The position numbers and the translations under genes are program-made. The notes under the pieces were generated by a model. The model was not told the origin of the DNA. It saw nothing but the letters and a program-made list of their open reading frames with translations, and did not search any database. A stretch of DNA of 44,112 nt. Source: a virus. The stretch is taken from the UHGV virus genome UHGV-0127376, one strand, 5' to 3'. Every line of letters begins with the position of its first letter. The first letter of the stretch is position 1. This document shows, piece after piece, positions 11,723 through 26,290 of the stretch.

Positions 11723-12096
11723 TGGCATCAATCATCGCAGCTAAAACTGCGGACGTCCAGTACGCCATTGTAGGCACGTGCCAGAACCTGGAGAAGCAGG
11801 TGCAGCCGGACTACAACGTAGGCTTCGTAGGTACGACTGCCCTGACTAAGCTGAACGCGTTCTTCACGTACATGCAGTCCCAGGGCTATACGGCTACCCG
11901 TGCCGGTACAGCCTTTAAGGATGACGGTACGCTGCAGGCGCGCCTGTTCAGCATGCTGTCACAGCTCTCTAAGACCGGCTACGTTGCCCTTACAGGTACA
12001 GGTATGCCGCTCGGTGAGGGCTCCGGTACAGCGTTTGATGATTCGTTCACTGCACTGCAGAGTGCATTCGTAGCCGCCACTGATGCGGCAGAATAA
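11722..12096 (+). CDS. Hypothetical protein
   Basis: 124 aa ORF with SD AGAGGAAG, start overlaps terminase stop. Confidence 0.5.
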   Translation: MASIIAAKTADVQYAIVGTCQNLEKQVQPDYNVGFVGTTALTKLNAFFTYMQSQGYTATRAGTAFKDDGTLQARLFSMLSQLSKTGYVALTGTGMPLGEGSGTAFDDSFTALQSAFVAATDAAE

Positions 12097-12107
12097 GGAG
12101 AGTACAC

Positions 12108-12290
12108 ATGGCAATTGCAAAAGCAACCTCAGCGCAACAGCAGGAGCTGTTGCGTCAGCTGAACATTCTCGGTAAGGACCTGTATGCTATCCTTACGCAG
12201 CCGCAGAACGTGGCCCAGACTGGTGCTGCCTTCGATACCAAGATTGCTGCGCTTGAAGCCGCGGTGGCCGCAGTGGAGGCTGCTAGCTAA
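12108..12290 (+). CDS. Hypothetical small protein
   Basis: 60 aa ORF with SD AAGGAGAG; Ala/Gln-rich. Confidence 0.4.
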   Translation: MAIAKATSAQQQELLRQLNILGKDLYAILTQPQNVAQTGAAFDTKIAALEAAVAAVEAAS

Positions 12291-12694
12291 TGCGTAAACT
12301 GGTCGCTGGGTTGCTGCTCGCGGTTACTCTGACTGGTTGCTCGGCGACCTCTGCACTCACCGGCTTAGTTGGTTCTAAGCCGGATGTATCTGCTCAGGTT
12401 GGTGCCGAGAACACCAAACAAACCGTTGGCTTGAATAACAAGGTGGACTCCAGCACCACCAACAAAACTGATGTACAGGATTCTAACGTAGGCACTTTGG
12501 ACACGTCCAGTAAGAAGCAGGTGCAAACTATTAGCACCGGGACAATCCAGGCAGAACGCCTGCAGGTGGTTAACAATGATAGTTACAGTCTTATCCTCGC
12601 CGGATTAGCTGGGGCCAGTATTCCTCTGGTCTTCCTAGTGGTCATTCTGGTGATTCGTAAGCTGTTCAGGAAGAAGGGGCAGCAGGATGATTAA
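12290..12694 (+). CDS. Putative unimolecular spanin (lipoprotein with C-terminal transmembrane helix)
   Basis: N-terminal lipobox LTGC after signal-like hydrophobic stretch; C-terminal TM segment LILAGLAGASIPLVFLVVILVI followed by basic residues; sits in lysis cassette. Confidence 0.55.
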   Translation: MRKLVAGLLLAVTLTGCSATSALTGLVGSKPDVSAQVGAENTKQTVGLNNKVDSSTTNKTDVQDSNVGTLDTSSKKQVQTISTGTIQAERLQVVNNDSYSLILAGLAGASIPLVFLVVILVIRKLFRKKGQQDD

Positions 12695-12938
12695 GGTGGG
12701 AGACATGGTTGGAGCAGACCTCGCTACCCGGGCAGGTGCAGCAGTTACCGGCGCTACGGTATCAGGAGGTTGGTTGGCAGAGTTAATGAGCTGGAACTGG
12801 AGCACTATCAGCTTCATCACTGCGACTATGTGCGCAGTGCTAACCCTGGCGTGGAATGCGTATTACAAGCGACGTACATTCAAGCTCCTAGAAGAGCAGG
12901 CGCGTAAGGGGACTATTAAATATGAGTTTAAGGACTAA
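12687..12938 (+). CDS. Putative holin (pinholin-like)
   Basis: 83 aa; Gly/Ala-rich weakly hydrophobic segment followed by a clear TM helix (WSTISFITATMCAVLTLAW) and charged C-terminus; immediately upstream of SAR endolysin. Confidence 0.5.
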   Translation: MIKVGDMVGADLATRAGAAVTGATVSGGWLAELMSWNWSTISFITATMCAVLTLAWNAYYKRRTFKLLEEQARKGTIKYEFKD

Positions 12939-13530
12939 GGTTATTGCGGCCCTCACGGGGGCCACTATGCTGGGTGGTGCTATTACCGGGGTGGTTCAGC
13001 ACAACGAGGGATTGAGCCTTACCGCCTATAAGGATAGTGCCGGTGTCCCTACAATCTGCTACGGGGAGACAAAGGGCGTCAAGATGGGCCAGAGAGCCAC
13101 GCTGAGCGATTGTCAGAAGCAACTGATAGAATCAGCAGGGGCACATGCAAAGGCTCTTGACGGGCTTCCTATGCAGCTCTCTGACGTAGCTCTGGTTGGG
13201 TCTGTAGACTTCATTTATAACGTAGGCGTAGCTGGCTTCAACGGCAGTGCTGTGAAGCGGCACCTCAAAAGCCTGAATTACGCAGAAGCTGGAAAGGCCG
13301 TACTGGACTGGCGCTATATTAGCAAGTATCAGCAGAAATCCCCGGGCATCGGTTGGGTGTACAAGGGCAGCAACCGCTGGACCTTCGACTGCTCTCAGTA
13401 TATTAACGGGCAGCGCAATAAAGTGTGCTGGGGCCTATGGGAGCGCAGACAGTGGCAGAGCAAGGCCATTGGGAATCAGTATAAGAATGTAAATGCTGCA
13501 GTGGCAGCCCTTACTAAGACCGGAGGATAA
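12922..13530 (+). CDS. SAR endolysin (GH24 lysozyme family)
   Basis: N-terminal Gly/Ala-rich signal-anchor-release segment (VIAALTGATMLGGAITGVV) followed by E-x8-D-x5-T catalytic spacing in NEGLSLTAYKDSAGVPTICYGET, as in T4/P21-type lysozymes. Confidence 0.8.
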   Translation: MSLRTKVIAALTGATMLGGAITGVVQHNEGLSLTAYKDSAGVPTICYGETKGVKMGQRATLSDCQKQLIESAGAHAKALDGLPMQLSDVALVGSVDFIYNVGVAGFNGSAVKRHLKSLNYAEAGKAVLDWRYISKYQQKSPGIGWVYKGSNRWTFDCSQYINGQRNKVCWGLWERRQWQSKAIGNQYKNVNAAVAALTKTGG

Positions 13531-15486
13531 ATGGCGTTAATTAGATTAGTAGCTCCAGAGCGGGTATTCTCCGACTTGGCGAGCATGGTAGCATATCCAA
13601 ACTTTCAGGTACAGGACAAGATTATCCTGCTGGGCAGCGCCGGTGGGGACTTCACCTTTACTACTGCCGCGTCGGTAGTGGATAACGGAACTGTGTTTGC
13701 TGTACCTGGTGGGTATCTACTCCGTAAATTCGTGGGTCCGGCATACAGCTCCTGGTTCAGCAATTGGGCGGGCATAGTAACGTTCATGAGCGCACCTAAT
13801 AGGCACCTGGTTGTGGACACAGTCCTGCAGGCCACGAGTGTGCTCAACATCAAAAGCAACTCTACGCTGGAGTTTACTGATACCGGAAGAATCCTGCCGG
13901 ATGCCTCGGTTGCACGTCAAGTGCTTAACATTATCGGCTCGGCACCCTCGGCATTCGTCCCGTTAGCGGCGGATGCCACAGCGGGCAGCAAAGTCATTAC
14001 GGTGGCTGCCGGGGCTTTGTCTGCGGTAAAAGGTACGTACTTGTATCTTCGCTCTAACAAGCTGTGTGATGGTGGTCCTAACACCTACGGTGTAAAGATT
14101 TCCCAGATTAGGAAAGTGGTGGGGGTTAGCACCTCCGGTGGCGTCACCAGTATTCGGCTGGATAAAGCGCTGCACTATAACTACTACCTGTCTGATGCCG
14201 CGGAAGTAGGTATCCCGACAATGGTGGAGAACGTAACCTTAGTATCCCCGTACATCAACGAGTTCGGCTACGACGATTTGAACCGGTTCTTTACTATCGG
14301 TATCTCTGCCAACTTTGCCGCGGACTTGCACATCCAGGACGGGGTTATTATTGGCAACAAACGCCCCGGGGCTTCTGATATAGAAGGGCGTAGTGCTATC
14401 AAGTTCAATAACTGCGTAGATAGTACCGTTAAGGGTACGTGCTTCTACAACATCGGATGGTACGGGGTAGAGGTGCTCGGCTGCTCAGAGGACACGGAAG
14501 TACACGATATCCACGCCATGGACGTACGCCACGCAATCTCTCTGAACTGGCAGAGCACTGCAGACGGGGACAAGTGGGGAGAGCCTATCGAGTTCTTAGG
14601 CGTTAACTGCGAAGCCTACAGCACAACCCATGCCGGGTTTGATACTCACGACATTGGTAAGCGTGTGAAGTTCGTTCGCTGCGTTTCATACGACAGTGCT
14701 GACGATGGGTTCCAAGCGCGCACTAACGGGGTAGAGTACTTGAACTGTCGAGCTTACCGCGCAGCATTTGATGGGTTCGCCTCCAACACCGGTGTAGGCT
14801 TCCCTATCTATAGAGAGTGCTTAGCTTATGACAACGTACGCTCTGGCTTTAACTGTTCGTACGGTGGTGGCTACGTTTATGACTGTGAGGCTCACGGTAG
14901 CCAGAACGGTGTCCGCACCAACGGGGGTTGTGTTAAAGGCGGTCGGTACACTCGCAACTCCAGCTCTCACATCTTCGTCACTAAGGATGTAGCTGAGACG
15001 GCGCAGACGTCCCTGGAGATTGATGGCGTGAGCATGCGCTACGACGGTACCGGAAGAGCTGTGTACTTCCACGGGACTATGGGCATTAACCCTACCATGG
15101 TATCTATGTCCAATAATGACATGACCGGTCACGGCTTGTCCTGGGCATTACTGAGTGGCTACACTGTTCAACCTACGCCTCCGCGCATGTCCAGGAACTT
15201 ACTGGATGACACAGGTATCCGTGGAGTGGCAACGCTGGTTGCTGGCGAGGCTACAGTCAACGCCCGTGTACGCGGAAACTTTGGCAGCGTAGCTAACTCC
15301 TTCAAGTGGGTGTCTGAGGTCAAGTTGACGCGGTTAACCTTTCCTTCTAGTGCTGGGGCCTTGACGGTTACTGGCGTAGCACAGAACCAGGATGTACCTA
15401 CACCTAATCCGGACCTAAACAGCTTCGTGATTAGGAGTAGTAACGCAGCGGATGTATCCCAGGTAGCCTGGGAGGTGTATCTCTAA
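13531..15486 (+). CDS. Tailspike protein, probable polysaccharide depolymerase
   Basis: 651 aa ORF at the end of the late region after the lysis genes; sequence rich in repetitive G/N/D/T segments typical of beta-helix tailspikes; no T7 gp17-type N-terminus, consistent with docking to the adaptor at 8595..9551. Confidence 0.6.
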   Translation: MALIRLVAPERVFSDLASMVAYPNFQVQDKIILLGSAGGDFTFTTAASVVDNGTVFAVPGGYLLRKFVGPAYSSWFSNWAGIVTFMSAPNRHLVVDTVLQATSVLNIKSNSTLEFTDTGRILPDASVARQVLNIIGSAPSAFVPLAADATAGSKVITVAAGALSAVKGTYLYLRSNKLCDGGPNTYGVKISQIRKVVGVSTSGGVTSIRLDKALHYNYYLSDAAEVGIPTMVENVTLVSPYINEFGYDDLNRFFTIGISANFAADLHIQDGVIIGNKRPGASDIEGRSAIKFNNCVDSTVKGTCFYNIGWYGVEVLGCSEDTEVHDIHAMDVRHAISLNWQSTADGDKWGEPIEFLGVNCEAYSTTHAGFDTHDIGKRVKFVRCVSYDSADDGFQARTNGVEYLNCRAYRAAFDGFASNTGVGFPIYRECLAYDNVRSGFNCSYGGGYVYDCEAHGSQNGVRTNGGCVKGGRYTRNSSSHIFVTKDVAETAQTSLEIDGVSMRYDGTGRAVYFHGTMGINPTMVSMSNNDMTGHGLSWALLSGYTVQPTPPRMSRNLLDDTGIRGVATLVAGEATVNARVRGNFGSVANSFKWVSEVKLTRLTFPSSAGALTVTGVAQNQDVPTPNPDLNSFVIRSSNAADVSQVAWEVYL

Positions 15487-15582
15487 GTAGCTCCCTGGGG
15501 TATCTCTATGGTATCCCGGGGCACTACTTGGGGTGCACGTCTATACCTGGACCTGAAATTTATTAGACTTTAAAATGAGGAT

Positions 15583-16044
15583 ATGTCTATGAACATCAAA
15601 TATGACACAACATCCCCTAGCTGCTTGGTGTGGCTCAAGGGTAGGCGCTCCGGTGCTCCAGCGGGTACCCGCAACACTCGTGGCTACTGGGTGGTACAGG
15701 TATCTGGTAGAAAGATACAGGCACACCGCCTCATCTGGGAACTACACAACGGGCCTATTCCAGACGGATATGTGGTGGACCACATCAACCAAAACCCCGG
15801 TGACAACAGATTAGAGAACCTGCGCTTAGCTACGGTTAGCGAAAACAACTGTAACGCACGCAGGTCTAAGCGGGAACATCCTAGGGGTGTATACTACACT
15901 GGCACCTGCTGGCGCGGGGAGTTCTGGAAGGACGGTAAGCGTTACATGAAGAAGCACAGCTCCTACGAAGTTATCTGCAAGTGGGTACTAGAGAAACGTC
16001 AAGAGCAACACAAGGCCTTCACCCCGGGGCAGGTGTATATCTGA
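15583..16044 (+). CDS. HNH homing endonuclease
   Basis: Motif VDHINQNPGDNRLENLRLATVSENNCN (HNH_3/AP2-type); free-standing between tailspike and repeat region. Confidence 0.8.
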   Translation: MSMNIKYDTTSPSCLVWLKGRRSGAPAGTRNTRGYWVVQVSGRKIQAHRLIWELHNGPIPDGYVVDHINQNPGDNRLENLRLATVSENNCNARRSKREHPRGVYYTGTCWRGEFWKDGKRYMKKHSSYEVICKWVLEKRQEQHKAFTPGQVYI

Positions 16045-16405
16045 AACCAAAAATTATTATACTCGCCCTTGAGCCTCCCTCACCCTCAACGACGCCAATT
16101 GCCCCCATAGGGGGTGCCTAGCGCATAAAAGGAGGGGTGGGGTGGGTGCCTAGACGTCTAGACGGCCCTAGGGCGCTCTCTGAGGTGTGGAGCGCCACGG
16201 CAGCTAAGACCGTGGCTATAGCGGAAGCCTCAGAGGGCCTCAGTGGCTCCCTGCGCTGCGCTGGGGCTATCGCTAGTGCTGCCCCACGGCTTGGCCTGTG
16301 CGTGGCACTGAGTGGCTCCTGTGCGCTCTACGGGGCACTAGGGGCTATCCCTGTGCGCTCCCTGTGGGCCATAGGGGTGCGCTCTGCCTTGCTTATTTTG
16401 CGCGT

Positions 16406-16462
16406 CCATAGTGGGCCCGCCTAGTGCCTGCATTGTGGGGCCATAGTGGGCCTGCCTAGTGC
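16406..16462. repeat. Two 22-bp direct repeats CCATAGTGGGCC(C/T)GCCTAGTGC (16406..16427, 16441..16462) with degenerate copies at 16105..16124 and about 16369..16388
   Basis: Read directly from sequence; part of an 822-bp non-coding, repeat-rich zone 16045..16866. Confidence 0.6.
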
Positions 16463-16658
16463 GCTGTAGTGCGTCACGGTGCTATCCCTAGTATGCACTA
16501 GGCTATCCACTGGCTATCCCTAGTGCTTTACATTGTGCCGATTATATGCTACGCTGCGCGCTCCCCACTAGGGCGCACATCCTCACCCAACACTATCCCG
16601 GCGCTATCTCTTTGCTATCCCTTTGCTCTTACTTTCATTCGAAAGCTGTCATGAAATG

Positions 16659-16675
16659 ATGTTACAGGAGTAGGA
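16659..16675 (+). promoter_or_regulatory. Copy 2 of exact 17-mer ATGTTACAGGAGTAGGA (candidate phage-RNAP promoter or other regulatory site)
   Basis: Identical 17-mer also at 5640..5656 and 37846..37862. Confidence 0.3.
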
Positions 16676-16866
16676 GGGTTTTAGGGCACTATATACACAC
16701 TACTTACTACTACTCACTAGTAGTCACTAGTATCCCCTAGTAATGCCCTGTATGACTGACCGTAGGGAGGGAAGCATTACCTAGAATCTTGTAACCTCCG
16801 CTCCTATCCCTCCGGGATATCGTCGCTATGGTTACGCTACTAATCACTATGTAAGGAGATATTGTT

Positions 16867-17283
16867 GTGGCTAGAACATTTAAGATTGTGGTTGATAAGG
16901 AAGGTTATCCAGTGATTAATGGTGCTGGGCCTGAGTATGTGAATAAGCGAGGTAAGAGAGACTATAAGACTGTGGCGCTGCATAGGGCCGTGGTTATGGA
17001 TGCTCTGGGAATCACTAGCTACGGTTCTGGCTATCACGTACATCACTGTGACAGTAACCGCCTTAACTGTGACTTCAATAACCTGATACTGGTTAGCGCT
17101 GACACTCACCGGGCCATACACTTAGCACAGATTCAGGAAGGGAGATGCTTCACAAAGGATGAGTTATTGGCTAGTCCTGAGTACGATACTAACTGGCGAG
17201 AGTTCGACGTGACTTATGGGGACTACAATAGTTTACTGCACGCAGACCTTTGGGGGTCTGCTTACTCTTTTTGCTCCCAGTGA
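16867..17283 (+). CDS. HNH endonuclease
   Basis: Motif YHVHHCDSNRLNCDFNNLILVSADTHRAIH; GTG start with SD AAGGAG 9 nt upstream. Confidence 0.75.
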   Translation: MARTFKIVVDKEGYPVINGAGPEYVNKRGKRDYKTVALHRAVVMDALGITSYGSGYHVHHCDSNRLNCDFNNLILVSADTHRAIHLAQIQEGRCFTKDELLASPEYDTNWREFDVTYGDYNSLLHADLWGSAYSFCSQ

Positions 17284-17303
17284 TAAAAAGTTTAAAAAAG
17301 TAC

Positions 17304-17333
17304 TTGCTTCTTTTGGTTCAATAGGGCTATAGT
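17304..17333 (+). promoter_or_regulatory. sigma70-like promoter (TTGCTT -18- TATAGT) with A/T-rich upstream element
   Basis: -35 17304..17309, -10 17328..17333; upstream AAAAAGTTTAAAAAAG. Confidence 0.35.
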
Positions 17334-17435
17334 TCAATCACCGGGAGGCACTGAGGCGCTAACCGGGGCAGAGTCGGGAGATTCAGCCGGATTAAAGCTA
17401 GATAGTGTGAAGGGTTAGACACTCAATAAAAAGAG

Positions 17436-17464
17436 TTGACACCGCGAAGAACATAAGCTAGATT
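17436..17464 (+). promoter_or_regulatory. sigma70-like promoter (TTGACA -17- TAGATT)
   Basis: Consensus -35 at 17436..17441, 17-nt spacer, -10 at 17459..17464; A-rich upstream. Confidence 0.5.
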
Positions 17465-17504
17465 GAATCCCGAAGTAAGCAGTAAGGCAGTAAGAAATAA
17501 ACGC

Positions 17505-17533
17505 TTGACAAGTTCTGATTCACTGAGTAACTT
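17505..17533 (+). promoter_or_regulatory. sigma70-like promoter (TTGACA -17- TAACTT), weaker -10
   Basis: Consensus -35 at 17505..17510; -10 match only 3/6. Confidence 0.3.
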
Positions 17534-17883
17534 AGATAGCGAACAAGGCAAGGATAACCACTCTAGGGCGCAAGGATGTGTGTCCCGTCGGATTAGGCTA
17601 GACGTTAAAAATGACCTCTTAAAGGTTTAGTAGTAAGCTGGTTTGCGGGGAGGCCCAGTACCTTGACTGGTACGTTGACGACCCACCCCTAGACAATCAG
17701 TTAAAGAGTAAACGTGCCGGACGTTATCACCGGGGTTCTGAGACAAACCACACTGTCGAGGCGAGAGCAGCTCGCTCCTCTGAATCGAGGGAACAAGGCG
17801 CGGAGTGTATCCCGCAAAGAGCATATAACATAGCGCAGCAGTAACAAGGTTGCGCTAGATTATGTTCTCTGAGAGGTAAGAGT

Positions 17884-18081
17884 ATGCGCAAATCAAAGCG
17901 TTTAGCATTACGGCGGAATATGCAATTATCACTGAATCCCACCGACGACGTGCCGCTTACTGTGAAGCCTAGCAAACAAGGGTTGAGCAGTGAGCACAGG
18001 GTGAGGGGAAAGCAAAAACAAAAGGGCAGTAGCAGGCAGCCATCTGGATGGCCTACTGTTAACTCCCAATTTGGTCGATAA
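17884..18081 (+). CDS. Possible first early ORF (basic, low-complexity 65 aa)
   Basis: ATG with SD AGAGG upstream, downstream of the promoter cluster; composition unusual so coding status uncertain. Confidence 0.3.
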   Translation: MRKSKRLALRRNMQLSLNPTDDVPLTVKPSKQGLSSEHRVRGKQKQKGSSRQPSGWPTVNSQFGR

Positions 18082-18085
18082 TTAC

Positions 18086-18117
18086 AGCCTATAGCATCCT
18101 ACGGGGTGCTATGTGAA
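18086..18117 (+). promoter_or_regulatory. Conserved 32-bp hairpin element, copy 1 (stem 18091..18099 / 18104..18112)
   Basis: 29/32 identical to 18802..18833; 9-bp stem with 4-nt loop. Confidence 0.4.
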
Positions 18118-18152
18118 GTAATTACCTAAACAACCAATCAAAGAGGTGCATT

Positions 18153-18728
18153 ATGACCCATTCAACTGGTAAAGTATTCAAGCTCACCGCTGCGGGCAGC
18201 ATTCGTAAAGCGCTGGGCGACGTAGTGGAAGCAAAGCGCAACATCACTATTAGCGCGCTCTTCCACGGCCTGATTAGCAGCAACGTTTCCTGGGCTATGG
18301 ATATGCAGCGCAGCGATGCCGCGGACTTCGATATGGTGCTGCGTACGCTGCTGCCTATCAAGTTCAACAAGGAGTCCGGCAAATACGAATTCAACGCGAA
18401 GAAGTGCTATGCGTCTGCTGAGAAGCTGGGCATCGAACTGGACACTATGCGTCTGGACTATAAACAAGCTGACAAGCAGGAGCGCGAAGTAATTGTAGCC
18501 AGCTTCTATAGCTCCTGTATGGCCCTGTACGCTGCCGAAGCGGAGCAGGTAAAGAATGACGCGCTGGATGCCGATGCAGTGCGCTTGCAAGCGCTGGGGC
18601 GCGTTAAAAACGCTATCAAGAAGGCAAAAGAGACTGGTGTAAGCGACGCTGACCTCGTGTCTATGCTGGTATCGCAGGGCGTGGATGTACGCGCTGTACT
18701 GGACGCAACTTTGAAGGCGGCGGCATGA
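18153..18728 (+). CDS. Early protein, unknown function
   Basis: 191 aa, SD AAAGAGGTG upstream; flanked by the two hairpin elements. Confidence 0.6.
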   Translation: MTHSTGKVFKLTAAGSIRKALGDVVEAKRNITISALFHGLISSNVSWAMDMQRSDAADFDMVLRTLLPIKFNKESGKYEFNAKKCYASAEKLGIELDTMRLDYKQADKQEREVIVASFYSSCMALYAAEAEQVKNDALDADAVRLQALGRVKNAIKKAKETGVSDADLVSMLVSQGVDVRAVLDATLKAAA

Positions 18729-18796
18729 GCGTAGAATTCATGGTTATCATAACGGCGGTGGTGCTGTTATTTGTAGTGGTGGGCGAATATCTCTAG
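18725..18796 (+). CDS. Possible 23-aa hydrophobic peptide (MSVEFMVIITAVVLLFVVVGEYL)
   Basis: ATGA overlap with upstream stop (translational coupling); single TM-like helix; too short for the ORF track. Confidence 0.3.
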   Translation: MSVEFMVIITAVVLLFVVVGEYL

Positions 18797-18801
18797 TAGC
18801 A

Positions 18802-18833
18802 AGCCTATAGCGTCCTGCGGGGCGCTATGTGAA
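18802..18833 (+). promoter_or_regulatory. Conserved 32-bp hairpin element, copy 2 (stem 18807..18815 / 18820..18828)
   Basis: A-T pair in copy 1 replaced by G-C pair here (compensatory change). Confidence 0.4.
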
Positions 18834-18857
18834 TGCAACTGGCGTATGAGGTTTCAT

Positions 18858-19079
18858 ATGAAAGCAATACTGGTCTATCCGGGCCATGAACTCTGGCCCG
18901 TGTGGTGCAATCGGGTATACGCAGAATACAACTACACTGTGGTCATATTCTCTGACAAAGACACTAATCAGGAATCCCCTTTAGAATTTGTGGATACCTA
19001 CACCGAAATGGCTGCCCGCACTGTGCTGGACGCCGTGAATCTTGGCATTATCAACGACTGGAGACAACTTTATGGTTAA
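18858..19079 (+). CDS. Early protein, unknown function
   Basis: ATG at 18858 preferred over 18846 because of SD GAGG 6 nt upstream; 73 aa. Confidence 0.5.
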   Translation: MKAILVYPGHELWPVWCNRVYAEYNYTVVIFSDKDTNQESPLEFVDTYTEMAARTVLDAVNLGIINDWRQLYG

Positions 19080-19335
19080 TGTATTCAACATCATTGTGAC
19101 CAGCGCTATGCTGGTGCTGGGCAACGACATAAACAACCCAATCCCATACTGCACTGTGCAGTTGCAGCAACCGGCAACGCAGGAGCCGCAGCCGCGCCCT
19201 GAGTACGACCTATTTGAAGACCCCGAGGGTGGTTGCAAAGAGCTGGGCGCACGTATCCTTGCGGCGGTGCAGGAGCAGTACCAGGACGCTGCGGTAACGC
19301 TCACGGTGGATGGTAAGAGCAATAACGAAATTTGA
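19072..19335 (+). CDS. Early protein, unknown function
   Basis: ATG 19072 overlapping upstream stop; ORF-track start 19042 is a TTG. Confidence 0.5.
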   Translation: MVNVFNIIVTSAMLVLGNDINNPIPYCTVQLQQPATQEPQPRPEYDLFEDPEGGCKELGARILAAVQEQYQDAAVTLTVDGKSNNEI

Positions 19336-19344
19336 GGTGGGGGC

Positions 19345-19524
19345 ATGCACGGAAAGAATCCTGAAACGCTGCTGATGCGTAAGCAGCAACCAACAATCGA
19401 CGGGCTGGCGCGGGAGTACAACGCGAAGGCAGCGCTGCGCCAGCACTATGAGAAACAAGCAAAGCGCCTGGGTATGACCCTGCGCGGCTACTGCTTCCGG
19501 TTTAATGTGCGGGGTGTAGTATGA
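19345..19524 (+). CDS. Small early protein (59 aa), unknown function
   Basis: ATG with SD GGTGGGGG; stop overlaps next start (ATGA); below ORF-track size cutoff. Confidence 0.45.
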   Translation: MHGKNPETLLMRKQQPTIDGLAREYNAKAALRQHYEKQAKRLGMTLRGYCFRFNVRGVV

Positions 19525-19739
19525 GCAAGCAGGACATTTATGACGTATATAAGCGCCCTAATGGGTTTCTTTACCGGGTACCTCTATTTAGTCCACTGCA
19601 CGCCCTCGCAGAATTCTATGCAGAGGAGACTAGACTGTGGTTGCCGTCCAGTCACACAGTTGGCGGGGTGGTAATGCTAAGTTGTAGCACCCTTGTGGCC
19701 CGCAACGTGGTATTCAAGGATAGCGCATGCTCACAGTAG
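19521..19739 (+). CDS. Early protein, unknown function
   Basis: 72 aa ORF in translationally coupled series. Confidence 0.45.
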   Translation: MSKQDIYDVYKRPNGFLYRVPLFSPLHALAEFYAEETRLWLPSSHTVGGVVMLSCSTLVARNVVFKDSACSQ

Positions 19740-20071
19740 ACGAAACAGCGCTGCTGTGCTGGCGTCTGCTGGAAACGCAGGGCAAGTGCGGTTGCACTTG
19801 GGAAACATTCAAAGAGGTTCCTAATGAACTCAAGCAAATCGTGCCAGTTGAGCGTCGATTACTCCGAGTTAGAAAAGAGGATATTGGCACTGTTCTCACA
19901 ACCTATCGAGAGTACACTGAGTCTGCCGCGCGGAAGCTGCAAGAGCACATTGCATTCGATGTGGTTGCAGCACTACGGCGGAATGGATACCGCGGAGCTT
20001 TTAAGCAATTTAGAGCCGCAGTCCGCGCCTATTATAAGCAGCAACAACTCTCCGCGTGGTACGCACGCTGA
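19727..20071 (+). CDS. Early protein, unknown function
   Basis: 114 aa ORF, start overlaps previous stop. Confidence 0.45.
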   Translation: MLTVDETALLCWRLLETQGKCGCTWETFKEVPNELKQIVPVERRLLRVRKEDIGTVLTTYREYTESAARKLQEHIAFDVVAALRRNGYRGAFKQFRAAVRAYYKQQQLSAWYAR

Positions 20072-20111
20072 ACTCTTAGTGCATGACGAAGTTCTATTAA
20101 CTCGGGAGCAA

Positions 20112-21794
20112 ATGAAAATGCAAGAAACTAACACAGCACCTATCGAATGGAAAGTAGTGTTACCGGAAGGTGCAAACGCACTGCCGATTAAAGAATCAAT
20201 GTATTCCAGCGGTGATTACTGGACCCCGTTCCAGGACTTGCAAATGCAAGGGGAGGACCATCCCCACACTGAGGGTCCGCTGCAGGTGCTTATGGGTCTC
20301 CGCACTGTCAGTGCGCACACTCCAGGCTTAGAGGTGACTATAGGCGGGGCACTGCACCCAGAGTATCGCGAATCAACGATGACGCTCGGCCCGTTGCAAA
20401 AGGTGGACCTGTACCGGTCCGGAACTTTCTGCGAACTCTTTGAACCGGTGCGAATCACCATAGACAGCAAGTTCTGGGAACGCCGCCGCGACTTCTATGA
20501 GGGCGAGGATGTAGTGGTTGAGCGCGTAGTTGCTTGCGTCGAAGAATTCACAGGTTACAAGGTGCACAAGCAGGCCGTGCAGTTATTTGAGCGCATCATG
20601 CTTGCACCAGAAGAGCAGCAGCGCCGCTTATACACTGGCTACGATTACGGCCGCCACACCCGCGATGGCAACTTAGCTGCGCTGCTCATGAAGTTGCACG
20701 GCTTCGTAGTGTCTAGATTCGCCGTGCCTTTGGGCTTTGGTTTCCGCAACGGCGAACCTATCGTGATGCTGGGGCAGCCGCGGATGCACAAGGACTTCGC
20801 AGCAGTTACTGAGTACCGCTGCGTAGAGATGCGCGTAGGTAAGTGGCTCGCTAACTACTACGGCAATGGCGTAGACTTCCGCGATGCTATCGAAGACCTC
20901 AAGGCTATGAACGTAGACCCTACAACGTACCTGTGCAAGACCGAGCAGGAATGGTACGACGCCTACGAGAATGGCCCGGGTAGCTGCATGAGCGGGTACT
21001 CATTTGAGCATAGCTCTGTGCGGACGTACGCTACCACCAGCCACGGGTTGCCGGATAATGGGCTGCGCCTGTTCATCCAGTACACCGGGGAGCTGTTCGG
21101 CGACGATTTCGAAGTGCAGGCACGGGCAATCGTTAACACAGAAACTAACGAGTACGTCCGCGCTTACGGCAACGCTGCGGATGCAATCCTGCGGGGGCAT
21201 GGGTACACCAAAAACATTGAATGTCTCGAAGGGGTAATGCTGGCGCGAATACCGCACCCAACATACAACGGCGCAGTGCTGATGCCATACCTAGATAGCA
21301 GCCAGTGCGGCGTAGATGAGTATGGGGATGATGCCTTTGTAATCCGTGATGCTTATGAGTACGAGGCACAAGACTCAGAAGGATACATCTACGTAGGCAC
21401 TGAGTCTGCTCGGTGCTGCTGCTGTGAATGTCGCTACTCTGTAGATGACATGCAGGAGACCGCAGATGGTGATATGGTCTGCGACGGCTGCGTAGAAGAA
21501 GGGGATTTTGTGTACGTAGTTGGGCGTGATGGTCTGCATAATCGCTGGAGCTGCACCTGGTCTGATTACCACGACGCCTATGTATACGACGAGGACATAG
21601 AGCGCTGCGAAGTAGAGGGTGTAGTGCACGACCAAGAGGAACTGGTGTTTGCACAGGACCGGCAAGTGCTTATTGAGCACGCAGAAGAACACCCAGTGCA
21701 CGGGTTAATTCTCACTGAGCATGCAGCTGATTGCTTGGGAGAGAAGTACCTGGGCAACGATGAAGATGAAGAAGAAGCAGAGGAGGCAGCTTAA
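20112..21794 (+). CDS. Large early protein with Cys cluster and acidic C-terminal tail, unknown function
   Basis: 560 aa from ATG 20112 (SD GGGAG); ORF frame is open back to 19824 but that overlaps the 19727..20071 gene; CCCCECRY...CDGC cluster; C-terminus NDEDEEEAEEAA. Confidence 0.6.
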   Translation: MKMQETNTAPIEWKVVLPEGANALPIKESMYSSGDYWTPFQDLQMQGEDHPHTEGPLQVLMGLRTVSAHTPGLEVTIGGALHPEYRESTMTLGPLQKVDLYRSGTFCELFEPVRITIDSKFWERRRDFYEGEDVVVERVVACVEEFTGYKVHKQAVQLFERIMLAPEEQQRRLYTGYDYGRHTRDGNLAALLMKLHGFVVSRFAVPLGFGFRNGEPIVMLGQPRMHKDFAAVTEYRCVEMRVGKWLANYYGNGVDFRDAIEDLKAMNVDPTTYLCKTEQEWYDAYENGPGSCMSGYSFEHSSVRTYATTSHGLPDNGLRLFIQYTGELFGDDFEVQARAIVNTETNEYVRAYGNAADAILRGHGYTKNIECLEGVMLARIPHPTYNGAVLMPYLDSSQCGVDEYGDDAFVIRDAYEYEAQDSEGYIYVGTESARCCCCECRYSVDDMQETADGDMVCDGCVEEGDFVYVVGRDGLHNRWSCTWSDYHDAYVYDEDIERCEVEGVVHDQEELVFAQDRQVLIEHAEEHPVHGLILTEHAADCLGEKYLGNDEDEEEAEEAA

Positions 21795-22855
21795 TGTTCT
21801 TGAATCCGCACGGGATTGATATGCAGCTGCTCTTGCAGATACTGCAAACGCACCGGCCTAGCTGGGGTAGCACTAAGTGGTTCGAGCCGCTGCTTATGCA
21901 GTCGCTACAGGCGCTGGGTAGTGGTATGCACTACGTAAAGGACAAGCACGGGAACTACTTCGTGCTGGTGGGGGACTCAGAGCAAAGTGACGTAGCGTTT
22001 ACGTCTCATCTCGACACAGTGGCACGACCAACCAGCGCTGCGCCGGACGTCGGCTGCACTAACAAGGGCGTGCTGTTCGTAAAGAATCCGCAACAAGCTG
22101 ACTGCTTGGGCGCCGACTGCGGCGCCGGTATCTACCTGATGCTGGAGATGCTGCGGCGCGGCGTGCACGGACGCTACTGCTTCTTCGTGGATGAAGAGGT
22201 AGGCTGCGAGGGTAGCGCTGCATCGGTCAAGGATGACTCTGGATTTTGGACTGGGGTCAAGGCGATGATTAGCTTCGACCGCCGCGGCGACGGTATCATT
22301 ACGCATCAAAGGTATATGCGCTGCTGCTCTGACACCTTTGCCAAGACCCTAGCAGAGCGCCTGGGACGCACGGAGCAGCACTTGCAGAAGGGTGTTTATA
22401 CTGACTCGGCTGAGTTCGTTGGCATCATTCCTGAGTGCACCAACGTCGGTGTAGGGTACATGCACGAGCACACCCCGGATGAGGTGCTGGACCTGAACAT
22501 ACTGGGCCAGGTGCTTGAGCGGGTACTACAAGACGGCACGTTCTCGCACCTCCCTATTGAGCGGGACCCGGCAGTAGCAGAGCCAGACCTATGCCAGTGG
22601 CTCGCTGCATCGACGCTCAGTTTACGGCAGCCGTGGGATATGCCGCCGGACGAGGACCCGCAGTTACTGGCCGCGTTCCGGGAAGTATCGCAGCTTTCTA
22701 AACAACAACTGGTTAGCTGGGTACAGGAGAATCCAGAGAAGGCGGCGGAGTACATAATGGTGTTCTCCGATTACGGCTTTAAAGAAGAACTGATTGAACT
22801 AGGCACCCGAGTCGTAGAAGACTGGGGCGGATACGATAATATTGTGGAGGGTTGA
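21794..22855 (+). CDS. Putative Zn-metallopeptidase / amidohydrolase-like protein (M20/M28-type motif order)
   Basis: Ordered motifs SHLDTV, GADCGAG, DEEVGCEGS, SFDRRGDG, HEHTPDE resemble H-x-D ... D ... EE ... D ... H metal ligands of the M20/M28 fold; unverified. Confidence 0.4.
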   Translation: MFLNPHGIDMQLLLQILQTHRPSWGSTKWFEPLLMQSLQALGSGMHYVKDKHGNYFVLVGDSEQSDVAFTSHLDTVARPTSAAPDVGCTNKGVLFVKNPQQADCLGADCGAGIYLMLEMLRRGVHGRYCFFVDEEVGCEGSAASVKDDSGFWTGVKAMISFDRRGDGIITHQRYMRCCSDTFAKTLAERLGRTEQHLQKGVYTDSAEFVGIIPECTNVGVGYMHEHTPDEVLDLNILGQVLERVLQDGTFSHLPIERDPAVAEPDLCQWLAASTLSLRQPWDMPPDEDPQLLAAFREVSQLSKQQLVSWVQENPEKAAEYIMVFSDYGFKEELIELGTRVVEDWGGYDNIVEG

Positions 22856-22857
22856 TT

Positions 22858-23304
22858 ATGTCTAAACTTTTTAAAGTAGGTGATAAGGTTCAGCGCATCA
22901 ATAAGATTGAAGGTAAGACCGTGCGCGGCGAGATAGTCACTAAGGGGCCTGGCCTCTATATAGACATCAAGCTAACCGAAGGCGCAGGGATTCATTATGC
23001 CGGGGATATCTATGGCGGCTCTGCCGACTTCTGGCAGCTAATCGAGGAGGCGGACGAGCTGCCACCGGTTCCGTCTAGTGTAGCATATTTAAACACTAAA
23101 CGAGACCCAGGAAACGACCAGCGGCTGGTATTAGAAAAGGACAGCGAGACTAACGAAGGACTACTATACATCGGAATAGTGCCTAGAAAAGGCAGCACCC
23201 GGGCAGAGCGAGAGATTGGTATTAATATGAGCCCCGATTCAGCCCTGCAGTTGGCACATGACATTCGTCGAATGGCTATGAAAGTTAAGCGAGAGATTCA
23301 GTAA
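22858..23304 (+). CDS. Early/middle protein, unknown function
   Basis: ATG 22858 with SD GGAGG; ORF-track start 22852 is TTG. Confidence 0.55.
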   Translation: MSKLFKVGDKVQRINKIEGKTVRGEIVTKGPGLYIDIKLTEGAGIHYAGDIYGGSADFWQLIEEADELPPVPSSVAYLNTKRDPGNDQRLVLEKDSETNEGLLYIGIVPRKGSTRAEREIGINMSPDSALQLAHDIRRMAMKVKREIQ

Positions 23305-24095
23305 TGGACCAGCCCTGGCTTAGAGCGTGCAAGCGCCTGGCCGTTGGGCAGAGGGCGCGCTTTCGGTGCTGCGGCAGGGACGCCGCCGGGGTGCTCTACA
23401 ATAACCCGGATGCCTGGGAATATTATTGCCACCGCTGCAAACAGGTGGGCAAGGAGCACAAGCAGTACCAGCGCATACAGTTACAGGAAGAGCCGAGGGT
23501 GCAGCCCTCTGCACCTGCAGATGCAATTTGCATTAGCCAAGCGCCTGCGGAAACGCAGAGTTTTCTTTACGGATTCCTGACCACAAAGGGAATCATGCCT
23601 GAAATGGTGGAGGATGCAGAATGGAGCAAAGAGAAACAGCGGATAATATTCCGTGTCGGAAGCGCTGCTCTGGGCCGTGCAGTGCATGCCCGACAGCAAC
23701 CGAAGTGGGTAATGTACGGCCAGCCAATGCCGTTCGCTGCCGCGGCACCTGCCGTAGCGCCGGATGTAGCTGCGGCCGCACCTCTAAAGGTCGTGCTCAC
23801 CGAGGACTATCTATCAGCGATCAAATATCAGCACGCGATTACGAACTACTCTGCAATGAACGTGCAGGCTATAGCTATGCTGGGTACTCGCTTGCCCGTG
23901 CAGTTAAGGGCGTGGCTGATACAGAACAAACCGACAGTGATACTGTCCCTGGATAATGACCAAGCGGGACACTCCGGCGCGGCCATGATACGGCGCGCGC
24001 TACGTCCCTTTATGTCGTGCCACGAAATCTACTACGACGGGGACCCAAAAGAGGCAACAATACAGGAGTTATTAGATGGTATTAGGCGCGTGTAA
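23304..24095 (+). CDS. DNA primase (zinc-binding + TOPRIM)
   Basis: N-terminal Cys motifs (RFRCCGRD ... YCHRCKQ) and TOPRIM-like VLTEDYLSA / ILSLDNDQAGHSGA. Confidence 0.8.
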   Translation: MDQPWLRACKRLAVGQRARFRCCGRDAAGVLYNNPDAWEYYCHRCKQVGKEHKQYQRIQLQEEPRVQPSAPADAICISQAPAETQSFLYGFLTTKGIMPEMVEDAEWSKEKQRIIFRVGSAALGRAVHARQQPKWVMYGQPMPFAAAAPAVAPDVAAAAPLKVVLTEDYLSAIKYQHAITNYSAMNVQAIAMLGTRLPVQLRAWLIQNKPTVILSLDNDQAGHSGAAMIRRALRPFMSCHEIYYDGDPKEATIQELLDGIRRV

Positions 24096-24522
24096 AGAGC
24101 ACAAACAGAAAGGCGGACCAAAGGGTTACGGAAATACCACGTTCAAAGGGCGGAAGATACCCCTGCATAGAAAGGTGTATTGCTCGGCGAACGATATATC
24201 TCCGGAGAGCATAGTGGGGCTAGTTGTGCGCCATAAGTGTGACAACCCGAGATGTATTAATCCCGAGCATTTAGAATTAGGTACGGTCAAGGATAACGTC
24301 CATGACTGTATTGCCAGGGGTAGGGCTAAACGCGGGGTTTCTAAAGGAGAGCATAATGGGTACTCCAAGCTAACGGAGCAACAGGTGGGCTATATCAGGG
24401 AGAACTACAGACGGTACAGCAGGGAGCACGGTATACCGGCTATAGCTGCCAGCCTTGGCGTGAGTGTGTCAGCAGTGCACGGTGTGTTGAAAGCTAAAAC
24501 TTGGAGGTTTAATTGGACCTAA
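24076..24522 (+). CDS. HNH homing endonuclease (paralog family A)
   Basis: Motif VVRHKCDNPRCINPEHLELGT; inserted between primase and helicase. Confidence 0.8.
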   Translation: MVLGACKEHKQKGGPKGYGNTTFKGRKIPLHRKVYCSANDISPESIVGLVVRHKCDNPRCINPEHLELGTVKDNVHDCIARGRAKRGVSKGEHNGYSKLTEQQVGYIRENYRRYSREHGIPAIAASLGVSVSAVHGVLKAKTWRFNWT

Positions 24523-25793
24523 TAGTAGTTAAAGCGATGTGCACGCAGAAGGTGTGGAACCGACTGCGTGAACAGATACCCAAGAGCATGCTAGCGCCGG
24601 ACACAGCGAACCTACTAGACTGGGTGGGGTTGTACTGGAACACGTACCCGGAGCACCAGGAGGTTCAGTGGGATGCAATGCAGAGCATGCTCAATCTCCG
24701 GGCGGGACACCTATCCCGGGAAGAGCGGGTAATCATGGACGAGCTTATGCGGGGAGTACAAGCCGTACCGCAGGATTCTGTGGTGGGGATTGTCCAGACC
24801 CTGAATGAGCTGGCCTACAGCGGAGAGGTGGCGGCGCTGACGCAGCGCTACCAAGACGGCGAGGAGATTGATTACCTACTGGAGATGAAGCACCTACAGC
24901 GCAAATACGGCGATGGTGCTGCGGTGCATGAGTCACTGCTTGAATGGGAGAGCGGTAGTGTTGACGAGATACTTGCCGCGACTGATGAGGGCGGCGGTCT
25001 TAAACTGGGCGTGTTCGAGCAACTCGCTAGCAACATCCGAGGTCTACGTGGCGGGGACTGCATCGCAGTGGCCGCCCCTGTGGACTCTGGTAAAACTAGC
25101 CTGCTTGCTGCTATTGCTGTGGACTTTGCTGAGCAGATGCAGCAGCAGCCGGAAGTATACGGGGACCGCCCGATTCTCTGGCTGGTTAACGAGGGCCCGG
25201 CGACGCGTACAGTGCCGAGGGTATATCAAGCGGCGCTGCACTGGACTCTGGCTGAGATTAAGGACCGGCACAGTAAGCAAGAGTTCGTGCCAGCCTACCT
25301 CAAGAAAGTAGGCAGGGCTGACCGGATTCGTGTTAAGGCTGCGCACTCCTTAACGATGGCGCAGATATCCACGCTCATGGAGGAGATGCGCCCTGCGGTA
25401 ATCATCATCGACATGGTGGCGAACATCCGTGGCGGCACTATGGAGACCGAGCACCAGAACCTCGAGGCGAAATGGCAGGAGCTGCGCATACTTGGGTGCG
25501 AGAACGACTGCGCTATTGTAGGCACTATGCAGCTTTCACTCGAAGGTTACAACATGCTGTTCCCGCCACTCACCGCTATGAAGCAAAGCAAGATTGGTGT
25601 ACAGGGTGCCTTGGACTTGGCGATTATGATGGGATGCTTGGACAGGAACGAGCAACCGCACATGCAAAACGTCCGTGGTATCAGTACTCCGAAGAACAAG
25701 ATGGCACTGTCTGGTAAAGAATCGCTCCTGCAATTCGAGGTGGGATTCGAGCCGGGGCGTTGCCGCTTTGACGAAGGCCAGATTAACCGGTGA
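24513..25793 (+). CDS. Replicative DNA helicase (DnaB-like)
   Basis: Walker A VDSGKTSLL and Walker B VIIIDMV; probable TTG start with SD GGAGG (alternative ATG 24537). Confidence 0.8.
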   Translation: MDLIVVKAMCTQKVWNRLREQIPKSMLAPDTANLLDWVGLYWNTYPEHQEVQWDAMQSMLNLRAGHLSREERVIMDELMRGVQAVPQDSVVGIVQTLNELAYSGEVAALTQRYQDGEEIDYLLEMKHLQRKYGDGAAVHESLLEWESGSVDEILAATDEGGGLKLGVFEQLASNIRGLRGGDCIAVAAPVDSGKTSLLAAIAVDFAEQMQQQPEVYGDRPILWLVNEGPATRTVPRVYQAALHWTLAEIKDRHSKQEFVPAYLKKVGRADRIRVKAAHSLTMAQISTLMEEMRPAVIIIDMVANIRGGTMETEHQNLEAKWQELRILGCENDCAIVGTMQLSLEGYNMLFPPLTAMKQSKIGVQGALDLAIMMGCLDRNEQPHMQNVRGISTPKNKMALSGKESLLQFEVGFEPGRCRFDEGQINR

Positions 25794-25798
25794 CTTCC

Positions 25799-25829
25799 CT
25801 AGCGCCTTCTATGAGGGCGCTATGTAGGT
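25799..25829 (+). promoter_or_regulatory. Hairpin element related to the 18086/18802 elements (TAGCGCC - loop - GGCGCTA TGTAGG)
   Basis: Shares 3' half GGGCGCTATGT with the early-region elements; about 20 nt upstream of ATG 25850. Confidence 0.25.
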
Positions 25830-25849
25830 ACATGGTATGGGAGGGTTAA

Positions 25850-26290
25850 ATGGAAATGAGTGAGTGTATCGACCACGGACGTTCGCGCAGCCTATCCCCA
25901 GAAGGCTACGCCTTGGTAGCTAAACCGGGGGTTAACAGTCGCTGCGTACGCCTGCACAGGCTGGTGCTGGCGGAGAAGTTAGGGGTGCCACTTAAAGCTC
26001 TAGATGGAGTGGTTGTCAGACACACCTGCGACAACCCGCGGTGCATTAACCCAGAGCACCTAATACCCGGAACCCCTGCAGATAACAACAAGGACCGAGC
26101 AGTGCGCGGTCGTAGTGCTAAGCGGGTGCCTAGCCGCCAACGCCTAACCCTTAAAGACTGCGAAGATATCTGCGCAAAGCATATACCTAGGGTTTATGGC
26201 GTCACCCACCTGGCCCGCGAGTACGGCGTAGACGCTAACGTCATATACAAAGTACTAAGAGGAGAGTACCCTTGTCAACAACCAGTATAA
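25850..26290 (+). CDS. HNH homing endonuclease (paralog family A)
   Basis: Motif VVRHTCDNPRCINPEHLIPGT; between helicase and DNA polymerase. Confidence 0.8.
   Translation: MEMSECIDHGRSRSLSPEGYALVAKPGVNSRCVRLHRLVLAEKLGVPLKALDGVVVRHTCDNPRCINPEHLIPGTPADNNKDRAVRGRSAKRVPSRQRLTLKDCEDICAKHIPRVYGVTHLAREYGVDANVIYKVLRGEYPCQQPV

Follow-up and report, generated by a model that had tools for sequence, protein, structure and literature searches.

Genes annotated as peptidases and lying just ahead of the primase gene have been recorded in phages since the VP93 and KP34 genomes. In KP34 this gene is gp11 ('peptidase'), with the hypothetical gp10 on one side and the primase on the other. Both the KP34 papers and the PhiM1 paper go no further than the label putative peptidase (IPR007484, the M28 entry) for this conserved pre-primase open reading frame (ORF). 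Here we describe the orthologous gene, at positions 21794-22855 of the virus genome UHGV-0127376 (one stretch of 44,112 nucleotides, hereafter the window), together with the gene immediately upstream of it. Because an existing annotation is reproduced, the metallopeptidase finding adds little by itself; what our analysis adds is that the peptidase is genetically linked to one partner family, that of KP34 gp10, across very different phages. We put at roughly 70% the probability that the protein is an active exopeptidase or amidohydrolase of clan MH that is functionally tied to its gp10-like partner.

By nucleotide comparison the window is a KP34-like Klebsiella phage (Drulisvirus, Slopekvirinae, Autographiviridae), with a DNA identity of 93-94%. 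The peptidase itself shares 95-98% identity with the KP34-like proteins nearest to it and holds the same place before the primase. It matches PHROG 4191 ('peptidase') over its full length (E 2.9e-155, with residues 6-352 aligned to the whole of the 342-position profile), and KP34 gp11 and the other proteins of this PHROG, also found in VP93, PhiM1 (PhiM1_10) and Shigella phage Buco, are orthologous to it with no material difference, their records giving a predicted name only. Hundreds of phage records carry the peptidase label for a gene of this type, and the relative P0009 is named in its NCBI record as 'peptidase M28-domain containing/Zn-dependent exopeptidase superfamily protein'. An earlier note on this DNA, made from the letters alone, had called the gene not a standard T7 function, which is true for T7 itself, but in KP34-, PhiM1- and VP93-like phages the gene is conserved and long annotated.

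Active site and fold of the peptidase

Enzymes of clan MH, to which families M18, M20, M28 and M42 belong by their common co-catalytic fold, bind their metals through a His, a bridging Asp, a Glu, an Asp or Glu and a second His, in this order, and the Glu that serves as general base directly precedes the ligand Glu. The same order, with the general-base Glu in place, is found in the window protein, as judged by invariance in 100 sequences and by alignment to cellular PepT-like proteins. Its features are the following:

21794..22855, + strand: peptidase gene, 353 amino acids plus stop, ATG start; orthologue of KP34 gp11 'putative peptidase', PHROG 4191
21821..22579, + strand: catalytic domain, residues ~10-262; clan MH alpha/beta fold, nearest to PepT, without the M20 lid
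22007..22015, + strand: H72-L73-D74, first predicted metal-ligand His and the Asp of HxD, aligned with PepT tsHmDTV
22115..22117, + strand: D108 (LGAD motif), predicted bridging metal ligand, aligned with PepT LGADDKAG
22193..22198, + strand: E134-E135, predicted general base and metal ligand, aligned with PepT GEESG
22277..22279, + strand: D162 (SFDRRG), predicted fourth metal ligand, aligned with the Asp of cellular PepT-like proteins
22469..22471, + strand: H226 (EHTxxE), predicted fifth metal ligand
22580..22852, + strand: C-terminal tail, residues 263-353; helical, modelled with low confidence, conserved in the KP34-like clade alone

The five motifs from which the earlier note had proposed a co-catalytic M20/M28-type metallopeptidase are all present at their exact coordinates in the ORF (SHLDTV, residues 71-76; GADCGAG, 106-112; DEEVGCEGS, 133-141; ISFDRRGDG, 159-167; HEHTPDE, 224-230). 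Eight residues, H72, D74, D108, E134, E135, D162, H226 and E230, are invariant in alignments of 35 and of 100 sequences reaching down to ~35% identity, and the ligand positions, E134 and D74 are also kept in the remote proteins of phages pW2 and Calle_1 and in four cellular PepT-like proteins. As H224 varies, H226 is the ligand. The family has in addition invariant residues of its own (R163, Q172, C178-S179, T203-D204 and E214-C215-T216-N217), which may line the substrate site.

The profile search and the structure prediction that the earlier note had called for both bear it out. Significant matches were obtained with Pfam M28 above its cut-off, with PHROG 4191 and, by family profile, with PepT-like enzymes, and the predicted structure shows the clan MH fold, with the predicted ligands located where strands end or helices begin, as expected. 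Together with the invariant ligand positions, these results support the proposed fold, and the motif reading from letters alone was sound. In the AlphaFold2 model (mean predicted local distance difference test score 83) most of the core (~10-265) scores above 90, and the tail past ~265 is helical and of low confidence. Other clades of the peptidase family have different C-terminal tails.

The family labels are less straightforward than the fold. The only Pfam match is to Peptidase_M28 (PF04389), at 23.0 bits against a threshold of 21.3 and over half of the profile (6-98 of 193), and a precomputed PF04389 match exists for only a minority of the homologues. Neither Pfam M20 (PF01546) nor M20_dimer (PF07687) matches the window protein, and the cut-off of the PepT-like NCBIfam model TIGR01883 is missed (16.6 versus 274.25 bits). 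Searched as a single sequence against the PDB, the protein matches one chain, PepT 3gb0, as two separate segments with the lid left out between them. A profile built from 100 homologues retrieves the PepT-like tripeptidases 3rza (E 2.5e-14) and 3gb0 (E 4.4e-14), followed by TET1 (3.6e-5), with the tsHxDTv, LGADDKAG, gEEvG and HTxxE motifs aligned. Foldseek against the PDB returns PepT, M42 TET enzymes, the catalytic domain of DapE and an M28 aminopeptidase at E values of 1e-8 to 1e-11, with M20 and M42 structures ranking above M28. By sequence and by fold, the best matches are the peptidases PepT, PepD and TET.

Comparison with these enzymes indicates what sets the phage protein apart. The PepT-like tripeptidases (MEROPS M20B; 3gb0, 3rza, 1fno, 1vix) are the best match, and their motifs sHxDTV, LGADDKAG, gEExG, xD and HTxxE recur almost verbatim in the phage protein. 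However, PepT carries a lid/dimerisation domain past the fourth ligand, inserted directly after the position equivalent to D162, whereas the phage protein has no lid and has its own invariant residues and C-terminal tail. Only 63 residues separate D162 from H226, where cellular PepT-like proteins have a large insertion, and a short hairpin (residues 163-172) takes the place of the lid in the model. In the M42 enzymes TET, FrvX and YpdE (2cf4, 1y0r, 1ylo) a PDZ-like dimerisation domain is instead inserted after the first His and before the bridging Asp; in the phage protein H72 and D108 are separated by 35 residues and the model contains no extra domain there. With the M28 aminopeptidases (PF04389; AAP 1rtq, SGAP 1cp7, LapA 6zeq) the Pfam match is marginal, as described above. 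Many M28 enzymes are secreted, whereas the phage protein lacks a hydrophobic leader and, having no hydrophobic or membrane segment (maximum 19-residue Kyte-Doolittle score 1.1), is soluble and cytoplasmic. In overall shape it equals engineered lid-less DapE (4h2k, 4onw), an M20 catalytic domain without its lid (Foldseek target TM-scores 0.61-0.66). Those constructs are artificial, inactive truncations, while the phage family is natural and widespread, and its active site is under strong purifying selection. The peptidase is a member of clan MH, most accurately described as a naturally lid-less, PepT-like catalytic domain.

This family is large and essentially viral. It is matched by 1702 protein clusters at E <= 0.001, and a survey of 185,579 species genomes of bacteria and archaea gave only ~8 loci, 6 of them on contigs of metagenome-assembled genomes. 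Paralogues occur in very large phage contigs: five places in a 635-kb uncultured phage (LR745206.1) encode the peptidase, and two paralogues (L035, L053) share one 150-kb contig.

The gp10-like partner and the conserved gene pair

The gene upstream of the peptidase encodes a gp10-like protein with the following features:

19824..21794, + strand: partner gene, 656 amino acids, KP34 gp10-like, PHROG 6980 (no function assigned)
20811..21383, + strand: conserved core of the partner, residues ~330-520; S387-C388, R434 and D491 invariant, Y381, Y402, Y448 and P488-Y489 near-invariant
21384..21713, + strand: CxxC...CxxC zinc-ribbon-like beta-hairpin repeats, residues ~521-630; C531, C534, C553 and C556 in at least 90%, hairpins in the model
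21741..21791, + strand: acidic C-terminal tail, ending ...EEAEEAA
21780..21796, + strand: translational coupling signal; GAGGAGG Shine-Dalgarno sequence at 21780-21786, 7-nucleotide spacer, ATG at 21794-21796

The two genes overlap as TAATG, the TAA stop of the partner (21792-21794) sharing its last base with the peptidase ATG. To place this arrangement in a wider context, we sampled 51 divergent viral loci, at which the peptidase shares 31-45% identity with that of the window, and sought the partner with an iterated profile seeded with the window protein. A partner homologue is present in 42 of the 51 loci, upstream of the peptidase in 38 and ~220-260 nucleotides downstream in 4; all but two of the upstream partners (36 of 38) lie within -56 to +94 nucleotides of the peptidase start. 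In the large contigs (150-464 kb) L035, L036, L066 and L067 the partner lies downstream, not upstream. No partner was found in 9 loci, 4 of which have less than 260 nucleotides of upstream sequence. None of the other neighbours of the window gene recurs in more than 2 of the 51 loci. The linkage also holds in reverse, as all three contigs seeded from distant partner proteins have a peptidase homologue downstream, and the two genes are adjacent in 4 of the ~8 loci from bacterial genomes. In Cellulophaga phage Calle_1 the pair occurs in reversed order, with the hallmark motifs of the partner retained. The pair thus persists at 15-22% partner identity, on contigs of ~25 kb to 464 kb, and with its order flipped. 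Beside cellular PepT-like genes with a lid, no partner-type neighbour was found in the loci examined.

Searches of Pfam and of PDB sequences gave nothing for the partner family, and fold comparison gave no strong match; the only PHROGs that it matches have no assigned function, and matches of its CxxC region to LIM and RING domains are insignificant. A whole-library search recovered 301 relatives, with residues ~330-610 as the conserved region. In an alignment of 131 sequences S387, C388, R434 and D491 are invariant, and Y381, M389, Y402, Y448, P488, Y489 and two CxxC pairs are present in at least 90%. The model, confident over ~220-640, predicts a helical segment and an alpha/beta core followed by short hairpins consistent with zinc ribbons.

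The C-termini of these proteins are unusual. The overall alanine content is 7.4%, yet 71 of the 131 representatives have -A at the C-terminus and 48 have -AA. In most cases the stretch before the end is an acidic tail, and some ends resemble the ssrA tag (...LALAA, ...SALAA). The Shine-Dalgarno sequence within the last codons of the partner can explain the Glu-rich stretch. It does not explain the terminal alanines. The same endings occur in loci where 9-33 nucleotides separate the two genes. The tail may be a degron, a docking element or a substrate for the peptidase.

Proposed function of the pair and alternative explanations

Judging from its family, the enzyme would hold two divalent metals through H72/D108/E135 and D108/D162/H226, bridged by D108. 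The metals would activate a water molecule, which E134 would deprotonate for attack on a terminal amide bond, making the protein an exopeptidase or a deacylase, as in PepT, TET and AAP. An open, lid-less active site would suit the terminus of a peptide or protein better than a small enclosed metabolite. Through translational coupling the enzyme and its partner would be made in a roughly fixed ratio, and the peptidase may act with, or on, the gp10-like protein in early-to-middle infection. The earlier note had suggested host cell-wall precursors, peptides or a defence component as possible substrates; the conserved partner points rather to a dedicated two-protein function.

Several observations weigh against an active enzyme working with this partner. 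The lid-deleted catalytic domain of DapE is inactive (PMC4012986), so that a lid-less M20-like enzyme may need compensating elements, although M28 and M42 enzymes function without the M20 lid. Given this inactivity, we infer that the phage enzyme either works like the M28 and M42 enzymes or makes up for the lid through its tail, its partner or conserved residues of its own. In addition, clustering of the locus genes shows a primase/helicase-like gene in 27 of the 51 loci, so that many of these loci belong to related T7-like marine podoviruses and their synteny is partly inherited. The partner was not detected beside the homologues of Bacillus phage pW2 or of L003, L052 and L081. Finally, the literature that we searched mentions this peptidase family at annotation level only and gives no biochemical or genetic data for any member.

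More speculatively, the peptidase and its partner could form an unrecognised, widespread phage module of two genes that edits protein termini and serves host takeover or counter-defence, a proposal that we regard as possible although on balance unlikely. The partner would contribute a protein of novel structure, whose Ser-Cys/Arg/Asp core is at best remotely GNAT-like, along with its zinc-ribbon repeats and an acidic tail that often ends in -Ala-Ala. The lid-less exopeptidase might trim the terminus of this partner or of a target, and the -AA tail might engage recognition of the host ClpXP type. We found no description in the published literature of the conserved two-gene module, the lid-less architecture or the -Ala-Ala tails, and these are the parts worth following. 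A lid-less enzyme with an intact active site, a locked partner and the -Ala-Ala end of that partner together offer a concrete and inexpensive experimental route, and the early-gene module concerned is carried by therapeutic Klebsiella phages and by many marine phages.

Among the alternatives to a partner-linked enzyme, the protein could be an amidohydrolase or deacylase for small molecules, like DapE, ArgE or CPG2. Its substrate would then be a metabolite, for instance a cell-wall precursor, a folate-like compound or an N-acyl amino acid, rather than a peptide or protein. We consider this improbable. M20 enzymes of this type bind and convert their substrates with the help of the lid, and a DapE from which it was deleted is inactive (PMC4012986); the phage protein has no lid. 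The NCBIfam equivalog models score 10-17 bits against cut-offs of 274-399, the best sequence and fold matches are the peptidases named above, and no biosynthetic pathway genes recur nearby among the 51 loci.

Another alternative, in which the protein is a general aminopeptidase working on its own to turn host peptides into amino acids that feed phage protein synthesis, and in which the neighbour is merely syntenic, is in our opinion decidedly unlikely. PepT, TET and M28 enzymes are indeed nutritional exopeptidases, the synteny is partly a matter of descent, and some homologues, that of pW2 for example, have no detectable partner. Yet the pair has withstood the divergence of the partner, the differences in contig size and the flipped order described above, and its genes are translationally coupled. 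The variable C-terminal tails of the peptidases suggest targeting over bulk turnover, and many such peptidases are already encoded by the hosts. As for a catalytically dead scaffold (pseudoenzyme) or a single-zinc enzyme of the glutaminyl-cyclase type on the M28 fold, proteins of these kinds usually lose part of the ligand and base set, whereas here 100 diverse sequences keep the general base and all five ligand positions without exception, and cyclases rank well below PepT, TET and DapE among the fold matches, which makes this reading very improbable.

Genomic surroundings

The window is a circularly permuted genome in which the left end of KP34 maps from ~16077 onward, so that the peptidase gene starts ~5.7 kb from the physical left end. 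Owing to this permutation, structural and late genes sit at both ends of the window (1-44112); its first 600 bases do not recur at the opposite end. A prohead-protease or endolysin role was set aside, as the gene is placed in the pre-replication region, at a long distance from the genes for structure and lysis, and its fold appears to differ from those of known prohead proteases. Scans of 12000-26000 for sigma-70 promoters and intrinsic terminators gave counts no higher than in shuffled sequence.

Around the homologues, genes for an RNA ligase, a 2H phosphoesterase, a NUDIX protein and PhoH near L002 and L003/L004 raised a link to RNA repair, which was dropped because none of them recurs among the 51 loci. 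In pW2 the peptidase homologue (L087 3929-5020) lies ~0.8 kb downstream of an 'ocr-like anti-restriction' gene (2619-3119). Calle_1 encodes a phage transfer-messenger RNA (L088 2147-2506; tag AQIEANMEAVNAILNLEVAVGV) and a glutamate transfer RNA 1.3-3 kb upstream of the peptidase and partner pair, the transfer-messenger RNA gene being 1.3 kb away from it. A connection between this transfer-messenger RNA and the -AA tails of the partners was rejected, since the tag ends in ...VAVGV, not in -AA.

Downstream of the peptidase in the window, a gene at 22852-23304 (150 amino acids, PHROG 4317 without an assigned function) directly adjoins the peptidase stop. The TTG start listed for it overlaps this stop by 4 nucleotides, and an in-frame ATG two codons further on would match KP34 gp12, which starts 3 nucleotides after gp11. 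Outside the KP34 clade this gene is not kept beside the peptidase. The window also contains three ORFs resembling HNH homing endonucleases (Pfam HNH_3), at 15583-16044, 16867-17283 and 24076-24522. The second and third lie in stretches without a KP34 counterpart in the alignment, and the third is flanked by the primase and helicase genes, at a place that a small hypothetical gene occupies in KP34.

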